From positions 38,315 through 102,314 of the forward strand of contig CAIZVZ010000005.1 in NCBI GenBank assembly GCA_903936565.1: a DNA stretch of 64,000 nucleotides, written 5' to 3'. The first letter of the stretch is position 1. Every line of letters starts with the position of its first letter. Under the pieces are notes generated by a model. It was not told the origin of the DNA, did not search any database, and saw nothing but the letters and a program-made list of their open reading frames with translations. Of the stretch, positions 8,212 to 30,440 are shown piece after piece. This DNA is from an uncultured bacterium. GTDB lineage: Bacteria > Patescibacteriota > Minisyncoccia > Phycocordibacterales > CAIZLB01. The position numbers and the translations under genes are program-made.

Positions 8212-10320
8212 CTACTTCCTCAAAACCCTATCCAAACTCATGTCATATTTTGAATCTGACCTTATTTGAGTATTTAAAGAATACCCATTTGCACTAACTA
8301 CAGTATTGGTAAAGCTATCTGTTCCGGCAATCTTCTGTGAATTAACGATAATTGGTGATTGATTAACCTGTGAGAGGCTCGGTAAAAACTCAACCTGATA
8401 AGACATTTCCTTTGGATTAGAAACATATCCGGTTCCTGGGGCAACATCTCCTGCCTTCCATGTAATTGTTCTGTTCGCTGAATCATACAAAACAGTTGAG
8501 CTGGCGGTTGTTGGCGAAACCTTACCCAACCAATTAACATAAATTGGAAGTTTTGCTGTATAGATCAAACCCCTAACACTATTGAATGAATTACTTATTT
8601 TTACATTAACTGTGTATGTTGTTTTATTGTTTGCCTTGGCTGGCATTGGACCAGTGTTTGTAAAAGGACCGTCGTGATAAAGGAGACTGGTCTCCAAACC
8701 AAGATCACTAACGATTCTTATTTTACGAGACGATTGCGATGTAACAACCTCAGCAACCTTATTCTCATTTAACCTGTTTCCCTTGACGGTAAAATTCAAA
8801 GTGATCTCAGGTCGTCTTATGTTTGATGCCAAATCCTTTGTTAAATCAAATACTTTCATATTAAAGTTTGAAGTTCCGCTTTTATTTGGTGCCACATCCT
8901 CCATCTGTGGATCGTTGCTTTTTTCCCAATAAAGCGTATCGTTGTCAGACTTATAAAATCCATTTGGAACCGCTACACTATTTCTATCAACCATAACACC
9001 AGAAAGTTTCCCTTCAATTGAAACATCGTGTATCGAGACGTCTAGATTATTTTTCCATATGATTTCACCCTGCAATAATTGACCACTATTTGCAACAACA
9101 ATCTCGTCTCCGCTACCATTAACCGCAACATCAGCACCCAAGAACGGCGCGCTTAAATTAATTGTATTTATTGCAGAGGCAAAAATTGTATCAATCTCGT
9201 TGGGGTTTTTATTCTGAGCAGTTCCCGCAAAAAATCTAACTGTTCGCTCTTGGTTTACCTGACCAAATATTTTGGCATTAATTTCAATCTTCTTCACCTC
9301 CCCTGGCGCAATGTCCCCTAGTCTCCAATGATCTGTTGCCAAAGAAGGATCTGGATCTGCTGAAACATAATCAAAGCCAAATGGGTATTCCGCACTAAGA
9401 ACAACATCTTTAATAACATCAGCGGAGTTAGATTTTACAGACACTACAAATTTTGTAGATTGTTCTGGAATGATTTCTTTTACAGAGTCTACTGTAATAG
9501 AAACAGGCCCAGCGCCAATACCGATCGGGTAAGTCTTTTGCTTAGCAAATAAACTATTTGTTCCAGGAAGTTTATATTCCAATGAAACACTGATATTCTT
9601 TGTAGAACCCTCCTCACCTAAGATAATAGACTTAACCGATGTTCGTTGAGTTCCCCCAGCCACTATCGTACCCAAGGGGATTCTGTCAGTTATAAGACTT
9701 GTCACCTTATCGTCAGCTCGTCTCGTACCGTCTGGATACGTCATGATTAAATCAACATCTTCCAGCGCATCGGAATTATTATTGAATACATTTACATCAA
9801 GCGATAATTCCTGACCTGCTGAAATTATAATCGGACCGGAAACACTAAGCTCAATGTTGGCGCCTGATATAATGTTTGGGTTTATTGTGAAATAATAATA
9901 AGCAACGGCTGCAGCAATTACCAAGAAGACAACAGAGAAAACCGTTAAGCCTTTCAAGAAAGAGTATATTTTGGACGCGTCACTGTTTTTGTCAGTAGAT
10001 TTTGTTGATCCAGAAGCTGTATTTGCATTATCAACTATGTAGGTAGCAGAAAAAGGATCCTCTTTTTTACCACCTTCCTCAACCACCCTGTCGTTGTCAC
10101 CATCATCCTCATCACCCCAGTTTCTATTTACAGAAACATGATGATCGTGCATTTTGACATGCTTCATCTTTGGCAGGTCACCAGATATAGAATCTAGCTT
10201 CTTTTTTAATTCCGCTATTTTTCCTTCGTCTTTCATGCGATAAATTATATCACCCTTTGGGTAATTAAGTACAATCACCGGGTAATAAACGAACAGGTAA
10301 TTACAGCTGAGTCTCAGCAA
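8212..10320 (-). CDS. Large membrane-anchored surface protein, unknown function (real start probably Met near 10236, MKDEGK…)
   Basis: About 670-700 aa. One TM helix (LTVFSVVFLVIAAAVAYYYF) is followed by a long extracytoplasmic region, rich in T/S/N/V, that looks like repeated beta-sandwich modules. Confidence 0.45.
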   Translation of the reverse strand: MLRLSCNYLFVYYPVIVLNYPKGDIIYRMKDEGKIAELKKKLDSISGDLPKMKHVKMHDHHVSVNRNWGDEDDGDNDRVVEEGGKKEDPFSATYIVDNANTASGSTKSTDKNSDASKIYSFLKGLTVFSVVFLVIAAAVAYYYFTINPNIISGANIELSVSGPIIISAGQELSLDVNVFNNNSDALEDVDLIMTYPDGTRRADDKVTSLITDRIPLGTIVAGGTQRTSVKSIILGEEGSTKNISVSLEYKLPGTNSLFAKQKTYPIGIGAGPVSITVDSVKEIIPEQSTKFVVSVKSNSADVIKDVVLSAEYPFGFDYVSADPDPSLATDHWRLGDIAPGEVKKIEINAKIFGQVNQERTVRFFAGTAQNKNPNEIDTIFASAINTINLSAPFLGADVAVNGSGDEIVVANSGQLLQGEIIWKNNLDVSIHDVSIEGKLSGVMVDRNSVAVPNGFYKSDNDTLYWEKSNDPQMEDVAPNKSGTSNFNMKVFDLTKDLASNIRRPEITLNFTVKGNRLNENKVAEVVTSQSSRKIRIVSDLGLETSLLYHDGPFTNTGPMPAKANNKTTYTVNVKISNSFNSVRGLIYTAKLPIYVNWLGKVSPTTASSTVLYDSANRTITWKAGDVAPGTGYVSNPKEMSYQVEFLPSLSQVNQSPIIVNSQKIAGTDSFTNTVVSANGYSLNTQIRSDSKYDMSLDRVLRK

Positions 10321-10897
10321 GTACTAACGCTGATTCTCTTTTTAACTCTTCAATTAAAACAACCCCCAAGTCTCTGATCTCACTATTCCAAAATGGAGAA
10401 TAAACTATACCCTTCAGCTTTTCACTCGGAGTACCATAACCAAAATGATGAGCAATTCGAAGATAAGCAAGATTTTCGACGGAAATTAAATCGTCATGAT
10501 TCCTAATAAATTTTGTCGTAATTAGTGCTTCGTACATTTTACCAAATTCTTCAAACACCACTTTATTAACCGCCTCTCCAGGGGAAAGTCGTTTAATAAA
10601 GTTCAAAACTCGAGCTAGTGACTGTTTGACTTGTACTGGGATATTTTTATCATAGATATTTGTAATTTTCTCAGCTCCAGTAATTCTCCATATTTCCTTA
10701 CCTCGAACCAATGCAAACTTAGCAAAGGTTAAATCCTGCAAGCTATACCTTAGTTTCGACTGCAATTTACGAACACCCTGTGCTGTGGCAATAATAGTAC
10801 CCAATTCACTCGTTAAGATAGTAAAGGTTTTATTGGATTCTCCTGAATCTCCGCTGTCTATAATATAACCTTCTGTGTGATAAATTCTATATGACAC
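10301..10897 (-). CDS. recO: DNA repair protein RecO (short form)
   Basis: N-terminal OB-fold pattern: YHTEGYIIDSGDSGESNKTFTILTSELGTIIATAQGVRKLQSKLRYSLQDLTF matches RecO (…givL….yGE.d.i….T.e.G.i.aiakGarr.kS…). 198 aa is shorter than canonical RecO. Confidence 0.5.
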   Translation of the reverse strand: MSYRIYHTEGYIIDSGDSGESNKTFTILTSELGTIIATAQGVRKLQSKLRYSLQDLTFAKFALVRGKEIWRITGAEKITNIYDKNIPVQVKQSLARVLNFIKRLSPGEAVNKVVFEEFGKMYEALITTKFIRNHDDLISVENLAYLRIAHHFGYGTPSEKLKGIVYSPFWNSEIRDLGVVLIEELKRESALVLAETQL

Positions 10898-10906
10898 ATT
10901 TATTAT

Positions 10907-13900
10907 TTATTTTACAGGCTTAATGATAAATCTTATTTCTTGATCACCCACAGATACCGCCTCCCCTCCCTCTATATCATCTAGGATTAGACTCTCTGCC
11001 AAGACTGTCTTGGAGATCATCTTAGAATATTTTTCCATCAACATCTTTCCAACATTAGAATCCTCTATTTCCAAAATAATTTTATCCTGTGGAGAAAAAC
11101 CAAACGCCTTTCTAGCCTCCTGAACAGCCCTAATTAGGTCTCTAGACATTCCCTCCTCTTTCAATTCTTCAGTTAGTGCTGTATCGAGAATTATTTCATT
11201 TCCAATGGCAACATTTTTTACATTCAATTCATCCTTTATGATTTCTTCCAATTCCTTATTTAATGGTTTACCCTCCTTGTTATTGTAAATAAACGAAGCC
11301 AATGGTTGTCGAACCTTCAATTGAGACTTGGCACGAAGCGATAGACCGGTTTCAACCAAAGCTCTTGCGGATTCCATGTTTACCAGCAATATTTCTTCTT
11401 TTTCTGATAGAGCCCCCAAATCTGGCCAATCTTCCAGGTGAACACTTAGCATTCCATTCTTTTTATTAGTAGAACTATTAATTTGATCGCAATCGGCTAT
11501 TTTGACCTTCTGATATAAATCCTCTGCTGAAAATGGAACAACTGGTGCAATTATTTTTGACAGATTCAACAAAACGGCACGGAGAGTTGATATTGCAAAA
11601 TTTCTATCCACAATGTTGTCGCCTTTAAATCGATCTCTCGATCTTCTCAAATACCAAGTAGACAAATCGTCAATGAATGACGCAATTGGTCTAACCGCCC
11701 TAGAAACCATATATGCGTCCAAATCTCTAGTCATGTCATAGTTCAACTTTTTCAATCTTGCCCAAATCCATTGGTCTAATACATTTTCTGATTTAAGTAA
11801 ACAGAAACTATGAGCAGAGTCCTCCCCAAACATCTCTGAATACGTTTTGTAGAATGTATAAACGTTATCTAGTCTATTGAATATTTTCTTATTTATCTCG
11901 TCTAGTGATTTTTCAGAGAATGCCACCTCTTCAGCTGTTACCGCAGGAGATGTAACAAGGAAATATCGGAGTGAATCTGCACCATACTTCTCAACTATAC
12001 CCATTAGTTCTGGATAGTTATTCAAACTCTTTGCCATCTTTCTACCGTCTTCTGCTAGAATCAAACCATTTACAGAAACATTCTTAAATGGAGATTTACC
12101 AAACAGACTTACCCCCAAACACAATAATGAATAAAACCAGCCTCTAGTTTGATCTAGCCCTTCAGCAATAAAGTCCGCCGGGAATAACTTACTATCAGGC
12201 TTTTCAAACTCTTCTTTGTTTTCAAATGGATAGTGTTGTGAAGCAAAAGGCATAGCGCCTGAGTCATACCAAACATCAAAGACATCGGGGATTCTTCTCA
12301 TAATCTCTCCATCTTCATTTTTCCAAGTAACGGTGTCGATTAGCGGTCTGTGAATATCTAATTCAAAGTTTTCAGTATGTGGCCATTGCACAAAATCAAT
12401 ATAGTGAAGTGAGCCGTTTGGATCTGATACATCACTCCATCCACTTCTAACCATATCTCGTGTTGTTCTTCCGTTGGCAACCTCCCTCATCATCCTAAGT
12501 GGTAATCCGTGAGTAATAATCAAAATATTTTCATCCTTATTTTCCGAATCTATTGAGTAAAGCGCTCCCGCAACACGCTTCTTCACATCAAAAGCCGACT
12601 CACCGTCTTTTGGAGCAGAAAAAACTCTATCTTCCTCATTTTTAAACATTCTTGGTCTCTCTTCCCATGAACCACCCTCCAACACACCCCCGTCACACTC
12701 TCTAAGACGAGGATCATAAATTATTTTTGACTCATCAAGACCAAGGGCTTCTGCAACAATTTTTGTTGACTCTTTAGTCCTTCTGAAATCAGAAGCGTAG
12801 ATTTTTGTAACTGGACGATTAGCATCACCACCACCCAACACACCGCCAGCTTTTAGTTTTTTAGCAGACTCCATTATTTGAGATGCTCCCTTTTCAGTTA
12901 ACCCATATAGATTTAGATCGTGTGAATTTACAACCCCCCTCACATTTGACTCGGATTCCCCGTGTCGCATCAAGACATATTTATTATTATTTGAGCTTTG
13001 TCTAATTTTTTCTTTTAAATCAGAAAATGATCCAATTATTTCCGTTTTACCACTTTCAGATTTCCACATTGGAACAGGCGCTCCCCAATATCTAGTTCTT
13101 GAAATTGCCCAGTCTCTTATGTTTTCCAACCACTCCCCAAAACGGCCAGAGCCAATTTCTTTTGGCACCCAGTTTATTTTATTATTTTCTGCAATCAATT
13201 CATTTTTCAAAGATGTAGTCCTTACAAACAAACTTGTTGTTGCAAAGTTTATAAGTGGAGTCTCACATCTCCAACAGTGAGGATATGAGTGAATCATTTT
13301 TTCCTTTGCAAGAAGAACGCCTTTACCTGCCAAGATTTTTATTATTTCAACATCCGCACTTTGATGATCTTCTTTTGGTTTTGCTGGTTTACCCATCATT
13401 TCTGTTATCAAGTCGATAAAACAACCGTCAAAACCGACATGTTTAATAACAGGAAGATTATTAGCCTTAGATAACTTCATGTCATCATCTCCATAGGCTG
13501 GAGCAATATGAACAATTCCCGTTCCGTCCTCAGCGGTAACAAAAGCAGCGTCGCAAACCTTCCAAATATTTTGTCTATTCTTTTCAGATGTTTCCAATGT
13601 TCCCTCTTTTTTGTAATAGTCAAAAACTGGCTCGTATGAAATGCCAACCAAATCTTTTCCAGATAATGGCTTATTAGGATCTATTAATGGAAGCACTGCG
13701 CAATCCTCCGAAACTACCTTTTTGGTTTTCAATGTTTCAAAAAGACTTTCTGCAAAGATATAATTTTCTACTCCAACTGAAACGCAAACATAATTCAATT
13801 CTGGGTTCACTGCAAGCGCCACGTTTCCAGGAAGTGTCCATGGAGTTGTCGTCCAAGCTACAAATGATGTTTTTACAGACGCGTCGATATTATAAAAAGA

Positions 13901-14635
13901 TTTAACCTGCCCTAGCGACTCATTTTTAATTTCAAATTTAACAAAAACTGAAATGTCGGCAATGTCCTTATAGCCCTGTGCTACCTCAAAGTTTGAAAGC
14001 GGAGTTCCACAGCGAGGACAAATTTGCATCACCTTGTAATCTTCGAATACCAAACCCTTTTTATCAAGCTCCTTAAATGACCACCAAACAGACTCGGTAT
14101 AACTTGAATCCATTGTTCTATAATCATTATCCATATCCGACCATCTACCAATTCGTTGTATTCTATTTTTCCACTCATCAGCATAAGTCAAAACACTTTC
14201 CCTTGCTGCACTGTTAAATTTATCAATACCGTATTCCTCAATAGCTTTTTTATCCTTTAATCCAAGTTTTTTCTCTATTAAGTTCTCGATAGGTAGACCG
14301 TGACAGTCCCAACCCCACTTTCTATCAACATGAAATCCGCGCATGGTTTTATACCTCGGAATCAAGTCCTTTAGAGAGTTTGGCAGGATATGTCCAAAGT
14401 GAGGAAGGCCGGTTGCGTAAGGAGGACCATCGTAGAATACGAAGTTACCAAGCGGTGATTCCTTTTTAAGAGTTTGTTCAAAAATATGATTCTCATTCCA
14501 GAAAGCAAGTACGGCATTTTCTTTTGTTGAAATTGCACTAACCGCACCCTCAACCTGTGTACCCTGCACATTTTGTGCCGCGGGAACCTTCCCATGCCCT
14601 TTATCTTCAGGCATTTTATTATTTAAATCGTTCAT
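10907..14635 (-). CDS. ileS: Isoleucine--tRNA ligase, type 2 (eukaryote-like), carrying an inserted histidine-phosphatase-like domain
   Basis: FYDGPPYATGLPHFGHIL (HIGH region), TTTPWTLPGN (CP1 editing) and KMAKSLNNYP (KMSKS). 1242 aa. Confidence 0.9.
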   Translation of the reverse strand: MNDLNNKMPEDKGHGKVPAAQNVQGTQVEGAVSAISTKENAVLAFWNENHIFEQTLKKESPLGNFVFYDGPPYATGLPHFGHILPNSLKDLIPRYKTMRGFHVDRKWGWDCHGLPIENLIEKKLGLKDKKAIEEYGIDKFNSAARESVLTYADEWKNRIQRIGRWSDMDNDYRTMDSSYTESVWWSFKELDKKGLVFEDYKVMQICPRCGTPLSNFEVAQGYKDIADISVFVKFEIKNESLGQVKSFYNIDASVKTSFVAWTTTPWTLPGNVALAVNPELNYVCVSVGVENYIFAESLFETLKTKKVVSEDCAVLPLIDPNKPLSGKDLVGISYEPVFDYYKKEGTLETSEKNRQNIWKVCDAAFVTAEDGTGIVHIAPAYGDDDMKLSKANNLPVIKHVGFDGCFIDLITEMMGKPAKPKEDHQSADVEIIKILAGKGVLLAKEKMIHSYPHCWRCETPLINFATTSLFVRTTSLKNELIAENNKINWVPKEIGSGRFGEWLENIRDWAISRTRYWGAPVPMWKSESGKTEIIGSFSDLKEKIRQSSNNNKYVLMRHGESESNVRGVVNSHDLNLYGLTEKGASQIMESAKKLKAGGVLGGGDANRPVTKIYASDFRRTKESTKIVAEALGLDESKIIYDPRLRECDGGVLEGGSWEERPRMFKNEEDRVFSAPKDGESAFDVKKRVAGALYSIDSENKDENILIITHGLPLRMMREVANGRTTRDMVRSGWSDVSDPNGSLHYIDFVQWPHTENFELDIHRPLIDTVTWKNEDGEIMRRIPDVFDVWYDSGAMPFASQHYPFENKEEFEKPDSKLFPADFIAEGLDQTRGWFYSLLCLGVSLFGKSPFKNVSVNGLILAEDGRKMAKSLNNYPELMGIVEKYGADSLRYFLVTSPAVTAEEVAFSEKSLDEINKKIFNRLDNVYTFYKTYSEMFGEDSAHSFCLLKSENVLDQWIWARLKKLNYDMTRDLDAYMVSRAVRPIASFIDDLSTWYLRRSRDRFKGDNIVDRNFAISTLRAVLLNLSKIIAPVVPFSAEDLYQKVKIADCDQINSSTNKKNGMLSVHLEDWPDLGALSEKEEILLVNMESARALVETGLSLRAKSQLKVRQPLASFIYNNKEGKPLNKELEEIIKDELNVKNVAIGNEIILDTALTEELKEEGMSRDLIRAVQEARKAFGFSPQDKIILEIEDSNVGKMLMEKYSKMISKTVLAESLILDDIEGGEAVSVGDQEIRFIIKPVK

Positions 14636-14706: not shown

Positions 14707-16506
14707 TTACATCCTACTTGGGACTTTGATTCCCAAAACATTCAAACCGTTGGTTAGAACGGTTAATACAGCCTTAGTTAACAGCACCTTATATGGAGTC
14801 AGAACATCTCCCTCAACTACAATTTGAGTGTTCGCATAAAAAGAATTAAATTCGGATGCAACATCCAAAAGGTACTGCCCAACATAGTGAGGTGCATGTT
14901 CTGTCTCAGCTCTCAGGAGGACCTCAGGGAATCTAACGAGCATCTTCTCTAATTTACCTCCCGCCCAATCTAGTTGACATATTTTTGGACTATTTGAATT
15001 ATTCAAATCTTCTAGATTAATATTCTCCACAATAGTTGAAACACCCTGCTTCTGCGCTTTTTCTAATATCGATTTAGCACGTACACAAGAATATTGTAGA
15101 TATGGGCCAGAGTCTCCTTCAAATGACAGTGATTTTTGTGGATCAAATATTATATCCTTCCCGATTGTTTGTCTAAGTATCGTGTATTTAATTGCGGCAA
15201 CAGCGATTTGCTCCGCTATTTCCTTCCTTTCTTCCTCCTCAATCTCACGATCCTTCATTTTTTCAAGCGCCATCTCAGTCATGTCATGCAACATTGATTC
15301 CCCCGTAATCACATCTCCAGTTCTTGAAGACATCTTTCCCGTAGTTAGACGAAGCATCCCATGTGAGAGTAGAAAATTCTTCTTTTCAATTTCTGGATAT
15401 ATTTGTTCAATTGCCTTATAAGATACAGCCAAGACATTATCTTGTTCATTGGCAGTAATTGTATAGGAAATATCATACGGATCCTTATTGTATTTTAGAA
15501 GTGCCAGACCAATTTCCTTTGCTTCGTAAGTTGGTAGCCCAAATTTATTTATAAAGACACGAGTATTTAGTCCGTAGTTTTCACCCTTAAAGATAACGGC
15601 CCCCTCACTCTCTTCAAAAATTCCGTTCTTTAATCCTTTCTGAACTTCCCCCAATCCCACCACAGAGCTATCGCTCTCAAAGAAGTACTCGTTGAATTTA
15701 GTTCCAAGTACCTTATAAATTTCCTCGAAGTGTTCCATGCTCCACTTCTTCCCTAAGTCATAAAGTGCATTCAATTCCGAATCAGATTTATCGTAAATCT
15801 TTTTATTTATTTCTTGGACAATAGATTCATCCTCCGAGTGATCCTTGAAATGAGTTGCACCCTTGGCGTATATTTTACCCAAAAAAGCAACCTTGTCGCT
15901 AAGCGGCATTGAATCACTTGGCCACTCCACCCCTTCTTCATTTTTCAGCAGATCAAAGCCATAGAAGGTAAAAGCAACATGTCTACCAACATCACCTTGA
16001 TAACAATATCGTTTAACATTTCCCCCAGACCATTCCCCAAGTCTTGCTAACGACTCTCCGATAGCGTTGGACATAAGGTGACCAATATGAAATTGTTTAA
16101 ATGGATTTGGATCTGTATACTCGTAAATCATTTTCTTACCAGCATGCAAGTTGGATTTTCCATAATTATCTCCCCCATTTGTTTTGTCTAATATTTCCTT
16201 CATCAATTCAAAACCAACGACCTCCGTCAGATAGAAATTAATAAATCCAGGACCTGCCACATCAACCTTTTTAACCCCGCTCAACGAACCCTCAGAAACT
16301 GCACTTTGTAGCTTTTCTGAAATCTGTTTTGCCAACTCCACAGGCTTAACCCCAAGTTTTGGTGCTAATATCATAGCCACGTTCGTGGAATAGTCCCCAT
16401 GAGATAAATCCCCCGGTCTATCCAATAAATTCTTTCCAGACAAAAAATCCAAAAGATTTACATCTTCCACCGACTTTAGTATTGCTTCAGTTATAGCTTT
16501 ATTCAT
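14707..16506 (-). CDS. argS: Arginine--tRNA ligase (likely start MNKAITEA…; the ORF-track start at 16545 is an alternative start codon)
   Basis: N-terminal Arg-tRNA-synthetase add-1 domain, FHIGHLMSNAIGESL (HIGH), and KMSSRTG in place of KMSKS, typical for ArgRS. C-terminal anticodon-binding (DALR) region. Confidence 0.85.
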   Translation of the reverse strand: MNKAITEAILKSVEDVNLLDFLSGKNLLDRPGDLSHGDYSTNVAMILAPKLGVKPVELAKQISEKLQSAVSEGSLSGVKKVDVAGPGFINFYLTEVVGFELMKEILDKTNGGDNYGKSNLHAGKKMIYEYTDPNPFKQFHIGHLMSNAIGESLARLGEWSGGNVKRYCYQGDVGRHVAFTFYGFDLLKNEEGVEWPSDSMPLSDKVAFLGKIYAKGATHFKDHSEDESIVQEINKKIYDKSDSELNALYDLGKKWSMEHFEEIYKVLGTKFNEYFFESDSSVVGLGEVQKGLKNGIFEESEGAVIFKGENYGLNTRVFINKFGLPTYEAKEIGLALLKYNKDPYDISYTITANEQDNVLAVSYKAIEQIYPEIEKKNFLLSHGMLRLTTGKMSSRTGDVITGESMLHDMTEMALEKMKDREIEEEERKEIAEQIAVAAIKYTILRQTIGKDIIFDPQKSLSFEGDSGPYLQYSCVRAKSILEKAQKQGVSTIVENINLEDLNNSNSPKICQLDWAGGKLEKMLVRFPEVLLRAETEHAPHYVGQYLLDVASEFNSFYANTQIVVEGDVLTPYKVLLTKAVLTVLTNGLNVLGIKVPSRM

Positions 16507-16618
16507 ATTTGCTATATTATCACGCAATAAAATAATCACAAACAAAACCTCACGGTTTATCCATGAGGTTTTGTTACGAGACCTTTGCGGGTCCTAATCC
16601 ATTATCAGAATGAGTATA

Positions 16619-30323: not shown

Positions 30324-30394
30324 AATCTAGTGCGCGAGAGAGGACTTGAACCTCCACACCCTTACGGGCACATCCACCTCAAGGATGCTTGTCT
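30311..30394 (-). tRNA. tRNA-Leu (anticodon GAG), type II with long variable arm, CCA not encoded
   Basis: Minus strand reads GCGCGAGTGTTGAAACTGGTAGACAAGCATCCTTGAGGTGGATGTGCCCGTAAGGGTGTGGAGGTTCAAGTCCTCTCTCGCGCA. Anticodon loop is CTTGAGGT. Confidence 0.8.
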
Positions 30395-30440
30395 ACCAGT
30401 TTCAACACTCGCGCATGGCTATATTATGCATAAAACCCAA

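Follow-up and report, generated by a model that had tools for sequence, protein, structure and literature searches.

We analyzed a 64,000-nucleotide stretch of contig CAIZVZ010000005.1 from an uncultured Patescibacteriota bacterium (hereafter, the window) and found a complete histidine phosphatase nested within its isoleucyl-tRNA synthetase (IleRS), an essential enzyme of protein synthesis. The synthetase gene, ileS, is an uninterrupted open reading frame (ORF) at 10907-14635 on the minus strand and encodes 1242 aa, the length given in an original prediction made from the DNA letters alone. That prediction also proposed an in-frame insertion into an intact synthetase and no artefact; this stands, as the product passes the ileS equivalog model and the same architecture occurs in 120/120 nearest homologues and in at least 19 GTDB genomes. 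Our favored explanation as a whole is that the nested phosphatase is a coupled working partner of IleRS, which we hold with slightly better than even confidence.

The synthetase part of the protein is well defined. The product scored 861.6 bits against TIGR00392, the ileS equivalog model (cutoff, 621.4), and its best match in the PDB was Thermus thermophilus IleRS (1ILE; E = 8e-208). Together with 1ILE, P. megaterium IleRS2 (8C8U) and the yeast and human IleRSs matched it at E = 1e-194 to 1e-208, whereas the match to Staphylococcus aureus IleRS1 was much weaker (E = 1e-83). In Pfam, the tRNA-synt_1 match is split around His_Phos_1 and is followed by Anticodon_1 (aa 954-1113) and DUF5915 (aa 1148-1239). 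Because the type-2 enzymes match better than IleRS1, and because the C-terminus carries DUF5915, the protein is closer to type 2 than to type 1; by these matches it is a genuine type-2 (eukaryote-like) IleRS of a Paceibacteria-type bacterium of the Candidate Phyla Radiation (CPR)/Patescibacteria. It shares with 1ILE and 8C8U (E about 1e-205) the family, the domain order, the HIGH and KMSKS signatures, the editing motifs of connective polypeptide 1 (CP1), and DUF5915. Both editing motifs, WTTTPWTLPGN (aa 261-271) and GTGIVHIAPAYGDDD (the GTGxVHxAP motif), are present and are invariant or nearly so in the family, and DVWYDSGAMPF lies at aa 787-797. The product fell below the cutoff of the models for mupirocin-resistant MupA and MupB (667 and 696 bits; cutoff, 1900).

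Alignment of the window protein with 1ILE covers residues 39-544 and 759-1104. The extra segment replaces 1ILE residues 481-487, so that about 212 additional residues stand where 1ILE, which has no phosphatase, has a 7-residue loop. The original prediction had placed the segment at 12388-12990, which corresponds to aa 549-750, and all the motifs that it quoted lie where it put them. In IleRS structures, the connective polypeptide consists of a CP core, CP1 (editing), CP2, and CP3 (PMC7191050, PMC7955072); the domain names used here are taken from these two papers. CP3 extends up to the second half of the Rossmann fold (PMC7955072, PMC7191050). In yeast IleRS, the linker 453ARDWNVSRNRYWG465 connects CP2 and CP3 and lines the reveromycin pocket, which is described as the tRNA binding site (PMC7955072). 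The counterpart of this linker in the window protein is aa 506-518; the insert begins about 30 residues past its WAISRTRYWG motif and lies within CP3, in a surface loop beyond the first CP3 hairpin and helix. CP3 topology varies among the Candida, Thermus, and Staphylococcus IleRSs, of which only the Thermus enzyme has a zinc motif (PMC7191050), and in human IARS1, CP3 contributes to the docking surface for LARS1 (PMC13439101). The window protein has lost the cysteines of the CP3 zinc knuckle found in T. thermophilus IleRS, and in more distant fused relatives a CxxC...CxCGG knuckle flanks the insert. Given the variable topology, the docking role in human IARS1, and the loss of the knuckle in the window protein, CP3 is thus a peripheral and permissive site for insertion. 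GC content does not shift at the insert and no repeats were found at its borders, so that there is no mobile-element signature.

The proposal that the extra segment is a histidine-phosphatase domain was borne out by Pfam, in which His_Phos_1 (PF00300) matched far beyond chance (E = 8.5e-27; 94.5 bits against a cutoff of 21.7). NKYVLMRHGESESN (aa 551-564) contains the nucleophile. ITHGLPLRMM (aa 707-716), which the original prediction offered only as a possible second-histidine motif, can now be assigned, as its H709 is invariant and pairs with the second catalytic His in the PhoE alignment. Alignment with PhoE (1EBB) matched the nucleophilic His, both Arg residues, the proton-donor Glu, and the second His. 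Twelve residues (N551, R557, H558, G559, N564, T580, G583, S615, R619, E646, R687, and H709) are invariant in the best 120 homologues, and R557, H558, R619, E646, R687, and H709 are kept in 155/155 IleRS-embedded domains from homologues and GTDB loci. A few IleRS inserts have RHP, RHS, or RHA at the RHG motif, with R-H retained. All six catalytic or phosphate-binding residues are likewise kept in 118-119 of 119 stand-alone relatives. Mean identity to the window protein is 48% for the insert and 65% for the catalytic core of the synthetase; the insert is looser than the core but clearly constrained. The complete phosphatase catalytic set is intact, and by its residues the domain is apparently active.

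Structure prediction had been proposed as a way to see whether the insert is an autonomous domain, and its outcome agrees that it is. An AlphaFold2 model of CP3 plus the insert reached a predicted local distance difference test score (pLDDT) of 83.7 and a predicted template modeling score (pTM) of 0.82, with most of the phosphatase core above a pLDDT of 90 and low confidence confined to the ends of the fragment and a Gly-rich loop. Foldseek matched this model with probability 1.00, template modeling (TM) scores of 0.72-0.75, and 19-29% identity to PspA (4IJ5/4IJ6), 6S2Q (mycobacterial hydrolases), PhoE (1H2E), GpgP (4PZ9), and 9MMH (a riboflavin-pathway phosphatase), all of which are compact phosphatases of ~200 aa. 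By sequence and model, the insert is an autonomous fold, a whole branch-1 histidine phosphatase that resembles the small phosphatases PhoE and PspA. It shares its fold, its size, and the R-H...R...E...H set with PhoE/YhfR (1EBB, 1H2E), PspA (4IJ5), and mycobacterial GpgP, Rv2419c (4PZ9), and differs from them in its low identity (19-29%) and in being nested in another enzyme. The earlier description of the domain as phosphoglycerate-mutase-like is right at the superfamily level and goes no further, since in fold and motifs the domain belongs with the small phosphatases. Phosphoglycerate mutases aligned to the model less well (TM, 0.58-0.65). Hallmarks of the cofactor-dependent mutases (dPGM) are E-R-x-Y-G around the proton donor, H-G-N at the second His, and a C-terminal tail; the window protein has RECDGG and ITHGLP instead of the two motifs. 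We rejected mutase identity on model scores as well (dPGM NF038349, 66 bits against 225; NF002901, 51 against 261; NF010713, 18.7 against 305). The insert reached none of the NCBIfam equivalog cutoffs for dPGM, CobC, PspA, or SixA (CobC TIGR03162, 71.5 bits against 162.9; PspA NF045917, 46.9 against 350).

We note a lineage-specific feature within the domain. A 21-nt direct repeat, 86% identical, joins 12827-12847 (GGVLGGG, aa 597-603) and 12671-12691 (GGVLEGG, aa 649-655). Given this repeat, and because about 90% of the family lacks residues 599-606, a small internal duplication may be the origin of the Gly-rich loop.

The nested architecture is widespread. We collected the best 120 homologues (47-100% identity) from a collection of 5.8 billion proteins drawn from NCBI, JGI, ENA, and Logan assemblies. 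The search of related genomes for the same insertion, which had been suggested as a check, gave a uniform answer: 120/120 carry PF00300, and in all 120 the RHG lies about 45 residues beyond ISRxRxWG. The identical 1242-aa protein was present on 18 contigs from four data sources. Among GTDB species genomes, at least 19 loci have the insert, with 245-272 aa between ISRxRxWG and DxWxxSG (436-445 aa in two); the 61 other loci listed lack it, and the distance is 57-91 aa wherever the motif search found both landmarks. The insert-bearing GTDB genomes are all metagenome-assembled genomes (MAGs) of uncultured CPR/Patescibacteria. Fused MAGs are labeled Paceibacteria, Minisyncoccia, Yanofskybacteria, Spechtbacterales, Peregrinibacteria, or Peribacteria, and some as Saccharibacteria or simply "bacterium". 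Insert-free IleRSs also occur in the CPR, in Saccharimonadales (L059), Uhrbacteria (L077), Peribacteria (L072), and Peregrinibacteria (L076). Judged by this distribution, the nested architecture is ancient and spans the lineage; it is fixed in much of the Paceibacteria and present in hundreds of related bacteria.

Copy number and position vary. Two Peribacteria/Peregrinibacteria IleRSs of 1472-1487 aa (L017 6537-10952 and L019 6507-10967) carry a tandem pair of His_Phos domains within CP3; in that of L019, RHA stands at the RHG motif of the first copy, and the second-His motif of the second copy is AHRRV. One IleRS of 1419 aa (P0215) has His_Phos at two sites outside CP3, aa 577-737 after DCWFESGSMPYA and aa 887-1058 in a loop where the anticodon-binding domain begins. 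CP3 is the site of 265 of the 289 classified His_Phos instances. We built trees of the domain and of IleRS by neighbor joining without support values, which allow coarse statements only; in the rough tree of the synthetase body minus the insert, insert-bearing IleRSs fall in at least three to four lineages.

We searched 1.84 billion cluster representatives exhaustively with the insert alone and obtained 348 matches below 1e-10. The best 149 of these, sorted by motif, comprise 72 synthetase-embedded domains, 69 short proteins, and 8 others. Many of the short proteins start with MKLNNKYYILRHGE, similar to NNNKYVLMRHGE of the insert and including the invariant Asn, and their terminal strand, GEVKELN, resembles the last strand of distant inserts, SEVKELxF. 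Because both the start (NNKYYxLRHGE) and the C-terminal strand match, the insert equals an entire stand-alone protein. The stand-alone proteins are annotated as "histidine phosphatase family protein" or "PhoE" and come mostly from Candidatus Staskawiczbacteria. The closest such relatives are free-standing phosphatases of ~190 aa from Staskawiczbacteria and other Parcubacteria (35-44% identity; N-x-[YF]-x3-RHGE start), which differ from the insert in being separate polypeptides. Like the insert, they are encoded at the orthologous locus, where their gene immediately precedes ileS.

In four independent genomes, the stand-alone gene lies between argS and an insert-free ileS (972-990 aa). Phosphatase and ileS are separated by 2 nt (L081/L082), 5 nt (L085), or 98 nt (L083/L084); in L086, one ORF lies between them. 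The gene order at these split loci is argS, phosphatase, ileS, recO, a DUF11/CLIPPER surface protein, and a class-II aminoacyl-tRNA synthetase (aaRS). The window has the identical order with the phosphatase inside ileS, as do most fused loci of Paceibacteria, and no second His_Phos ORF was found in the window or within ±8 kb in any fused locus. The shared order and the lack of a separate His_Phos copy at fused loci together argue that the split and fused forms are at one orthologous locus. In the rough tree, the fused clade of the window and the IleRS of split locus L086 are sisters. At the other split loci (three of four genomes), the adjacent IleRS is very divergent, and HKSKGN replaces KMSKS. 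These divergent ileS genes (L081 10573-13491, L083 10669-13641, and L085 10576-13539) also have MGVHHAWG for HIGH and NPWLDAG for DVWYDSG. Their presence at the orthologous argS-ileS-recO locus suggests either in-place replacement of ileS or extreme divergence.

Two further possibilities at the split loci were considered and rejected. Stand-alone proteins and inserts differ in charge (median pI, 9.8 and 6.1), but we do not read this as a signal for docking to RNA or IleRS; the difference is compositional, because the split-type ArgRS and IleRS are also basic (pI about 9) and those of the window are acidic. A conserved third partner was rejected too, as the small ORFs beside the stand-alone gene are lineage-specific. 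As separate observations, a 166-aa RVT_1 reverse-transcriptase ORF (L083/L084 7113-7613) lies just upstream of an AA_kinase-argS-phosphatase-ileS block in a Staskawiczbacteria-type genome, and L086 begins with a second, separate His_Phos gene (1-51; 180-aa product), which the end of the locus truncates; this gene and the NUDIX gene that comes next lie about 6 kb upstream from argS-phosphatase-ileS. Because of this second gene, we note that split-type genomes can hold more than one His_Phos paralogue. The features of the window are listed in Table 1.

Table 1. Positions in the window of ileS, its parts and motifs, and its neighbors
Feature	Position	Strand	Basis
ileS ORF, type-2 IleRS with nested phosphatase	10907..14635	-	ORF, TIGR00392, PDB relatives
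IleRS N-terminal part, aa 1-545: first Rossmann half, CP core, CP1 editing, CP2, CP2-3 linker, first CP3 strands and helix	13001..14635	-	Aligns with 1ILE 14-480
HIGH-type signature HFGH, aa 79-82	14390..14401	-	H79, G81, H82 invariant (H44, G46, H47 in family alignment A2)
CP1 editing-site motif TTTPWTLPGN, aa 262-271	13823..13852	-	Invariant in family alignment
CP2-3 linker motif WAISRTRYWG, aa 509-518	13082..13111	-	Counterpart of the yeast IleRS linker, residues 453-465
Inserted segment in CP3 loop, aa 546-757, 212 aa, complete histidine-phosphatase domain	12365..13000	-	Gap in 1ILE alignment
Pfam His_Phos_1 (PF00300), aa 554-730	12446..12976	-	Pfam (scores in text); Foldseek
RHG motif: R557, nucleophile H558, G559	12959..12967	-	Same position in 120/120 homologues; R and H in 155/155 IleRS inserts
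Gly-rich loop GGVLGGGDAN, aa 597-606, lineage-specific, inside phosphatase domain	12818..12847	-	599-606 gapped in 87-93% of family; low pLDDT
R619, second phosphate-binding Arg (SDFRRTKES)	12779..12781	-	Aligned to PhoE TSGRALETA; 155/155
E646, putative proton donor (RLRE)	12698..12700	-	Aligned to PhoE RLRE; 155/155 IleRS inserts; lost in 27/83 ValRS-embedded domains
H709, second catalytic His (ITHGLP)	12509..12511	-	Aligned to PhoE VTHGVV; 155/155
IleRS C-terminal part, aa 758-1242: rest of CP3, second Rossmann half, anticodon-binding domain, DUF5915	10907..12364	-	Aligns with 1ILE 488-819
KMAKS, KMSKS-type class-I signature, aa 866-870	12026-12040	-	Conserved in family
argS, upstream neighbor	14707..16545	-	Pfam; synteny with L081, L083, L085, L086
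recO, downstream neighbor, conserved argS-ileS-recO-DUF11-class II aaRS block	10301..10897	-	Pfam RecO_N; synteny

The same domain family occurs in two other enzymes. P0169, a bona fide valyl-tRNA synthetase (ValRS; 997 bits against a cutoff of 704), has two His_Phos copies at the CP3-equivalent position, and the ValRS P0146 has at least three and probably four. Among the 120 nearest ValRS relatives, PF00300 is found in those of about 1020-1630 aa, and insert-free proteins are about 780-1100 aa, most of them 850-900. The His_Phos-bearing ValRSs (P0169, P0146, P0290, P0305, P0308, P0323, and about 70 others) have names that point to Candidatus Gracilibacteria/Peregrinibacteria. This sister class-Ia synthetase thus resembles the window protein in domain family and position and is likewise undescribed, but it differs in having one to four tandem copies, in that its domains form a separate clade of their own in the rough domain tree, and in frequent loss of catalytic residues. 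The proton-donor Glu is lost in 27 of 83 ValRS domains and the second His is Asn in 10, while R-H-R is always kept; an independent alignment agrees on the losses (ELSSYD for RLRExD, VTNRS for ITHGL). The other carrier is P0284, a 387-aa threonylcarbamoyl-AMP synthase of the TsaC/Sua5 type that passes TIGR00057 and has a C-terminal His_Phos of the same subfamily. By its model match, P0284 is a further adenylate-forming, tRNA-linked partner of His_Phos.

We judge it somewhat more probable than its opposite that the phosphatase domain of IleRS is active and functionally coupled to the synthetase. The tethered domain would be a working phosphomonoesterase, a built-in partner that removes at its source a phosphate-bearing by-product of adenylate formation, either pyrophosphate (PPi) or possibly a nucleoside monophosphate. 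Such local clearance would make amino-acid activation effectively irreversible. IleRS, ValRS, and TsaC all convert an amino acid and ATP to an acyl-adenylate and PPi, and we prefer by-product clearance because this chemistry is the one property common to the three. Moreover, the variable copy number and the occasional use of other sites argue against any mechanism that needs an exact geometry; by-product clearance would need none. It is the mechanism to which we commit, if weakly, as a tentative choice. A tblastn search of the window and about a megabase of locus fragments for conventional pyrophosphatase genes gave no match, which over so limited a sequence is uninformative.

Several observations weigh against this explanation. 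The substrates of the nearest solved relatives are small metabolites, and we know of no branch-1 pyrophosphatase or RNA-end phosphatase. Every aaRS makes PPi, which leaves a pyrophosphatase on just one or two of them unexplained. Of 71 ValRS proteins, 23 hold only a copy without the proton-donor Glu, and sometimes without the second His too; because they keep only this degenerate copy, catalysis is dispensable in part of the ValRS radiation, though not in IleRS. No split arrangement was found for valS at the insert-free loci L087 and L088, where no phosphatase neighbors the gene. The whole argS-ileS-recO-DUF11-aaRS block is syntenic across Paceibacteria, and the adjacency of the stand-alone gene is therefore weaker evidence of functional linkage. 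Finally, a near-full-length AlphaFold2 model (pLDDT, 77), in which the insert and CP1 are confident and the Rossmann core is of low confidence, has a pTM of 0.58, too low to place the phosphatase site relative to the synthetic and editing sites.

The rival that survives best, a serious one although we consider it unlikely, is neutral capture, in which an independent housekeeping phosphatase encoded beside ileS was copied into the permissive CP3 loop and keeps an unrelated job. The block-wide synteny means that the neighborhood may be merely historical, CP3 is structurally variable and tolerant, and the closest folds are metabolic phosphatases. Strict conservation of the active site would be expected equally of an essential stand-alone function. 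Even the ValRS insert could have come by recombination between ileS and valS at homologous CP3 flanks, with the ValRS inserts forming one clade of their own. However, the domain is embedded in several IleRS lineages, including those of Peribacteria and Peregrinibacteria, which lack the argS-ileS synteny, and it recurs in ValRS, at the two other sites in P0215, and fused to TsaC. Such repeated pairing with adenylate-forming translation enzymes is hard to explain by accident.

Less probable, in our estimate, and our second choice of mechanism after by-product clearance, is healing of the tRNA end, in which the domain would clear tRNA-Ile of a 3'-terminal phosphate or pyrophosphate ahead of charging. 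In IleRS, the flexible CCA end already moves between two sites, the CCA-end pocket is lined by the CP2-3 linker, which the insert follows, and a terminal 3'-phosphate is a phosphomonoester, standard chemistry for this fold. Toxins that pyrophosphorylate the tRNA CCA end exist and can be isoacceptor-selective (10.1101/2021.04.30.441581, PMC11559606). Against this, neither the TsaC fusion nor the non-CP3 sites of P0215 put the domain near a CCA end, and universal retention in IleRS resembles housekeeping rather than conditional defense. PADLOC models of anti-phage defense matched neither the insert, the stand-alone protein, nor the TsaC fusion. We also know of no histidine phosphatase that acts on RNA ends. 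In its fullest version, to which we give little credence, the insert would add a third active site that acts on the tRNA acceptor end, serving as a built-in device for repair or as an antitoxin against RNase damage or toxSAS-type pyrophosphorylation; that the free-standing neighbor gene would be its two-protein version is equally doubtful. If true, acceptor-end repair would bring an RNA-end phosphatase into the histidine phosphatase superfamily and integrated tRNA repair into the aaRSs, a first in both cases.

We regard as improbable a ligand sensor or pseudo-enzyme that binds a phosphorylated ligand without turnover and regulates or stabilizes the synthetase. ValRS fits it in part, since its domains without exception retain phosphate-binding R-H-R whereas many lineages have lost the acid/base Glu and the second His, and tandem arrays of up to four copies suggest binding or spacer modules over an enzyme; yet the complete catalytic set, proton donor included, is present in 155/155 IleRS inserts and likewise in the stand-alone relatives. 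An assembly chimera or mis-called fusion of two genes, to which the unusual protein length alone could point, is refuted for practical purposes by the uninterrupted ORF without a composition break, the synthetase sequence that resumes on both sides in register with 1ILE, the identical protein on 18 contigs from four sources, and the architecture of all 120 homologues.

The original prediction knew of no synthetase with a fused phosphatase, and a full-text literature search agrees, as it returned no description of a histidine phosphatase nested in IleRS or any aaRS. Acquisition of extra domains by aaRSs is known. Within the searchable literature, both the partner and the nested topology are unprecedented for a synthetase with an accreted domain. 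One curated precedent is an IleRS with an extra enzyme domain, NCBIfam NF040702 (ileS_w_GNAT), which differs in that the domain is GNAT; the window protein is not a member (336 bits against a cutoff of 1999), and the literature search found no paper on that form. The bifunctional RNase H/acid phosphatase (NF005567, the M. tuberculosis Rv2228c type), the third-best NCBIfam match of the insert, has a similar His_Phos joined to a nucleic-acid enzyme, but end to end, whereas ours is nested; the insert is again not a member (62 bits against 326). The novelty is one of description, not of data, as the architecture is already visible in the automated Pfam annotation of hundreds of database proteins. 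The NCBI pipeline labels the fused IleRSs and ValRSs only "class I tRNA ligase family protein", despite their passing ileS or valS equivalog scores, and they could be scored as missing in metabolic reconstructions of CPR bacteria. Recurrence of the domain points to a possible unrecognized requirement of translation in ultra-small, metabolically minimal bacteria, whether product clearance, tRNA-end maintenance, or regulation, and the natural pair of split and fused forms makes the question experimentally tractable.

Elsewhere in the window, an Rfam scan at gathering thresholds gives six of the seven tRNAs; the one that it omits, tRNA-Leu(GAG) at 30330-30414, is called by ARAGORN.

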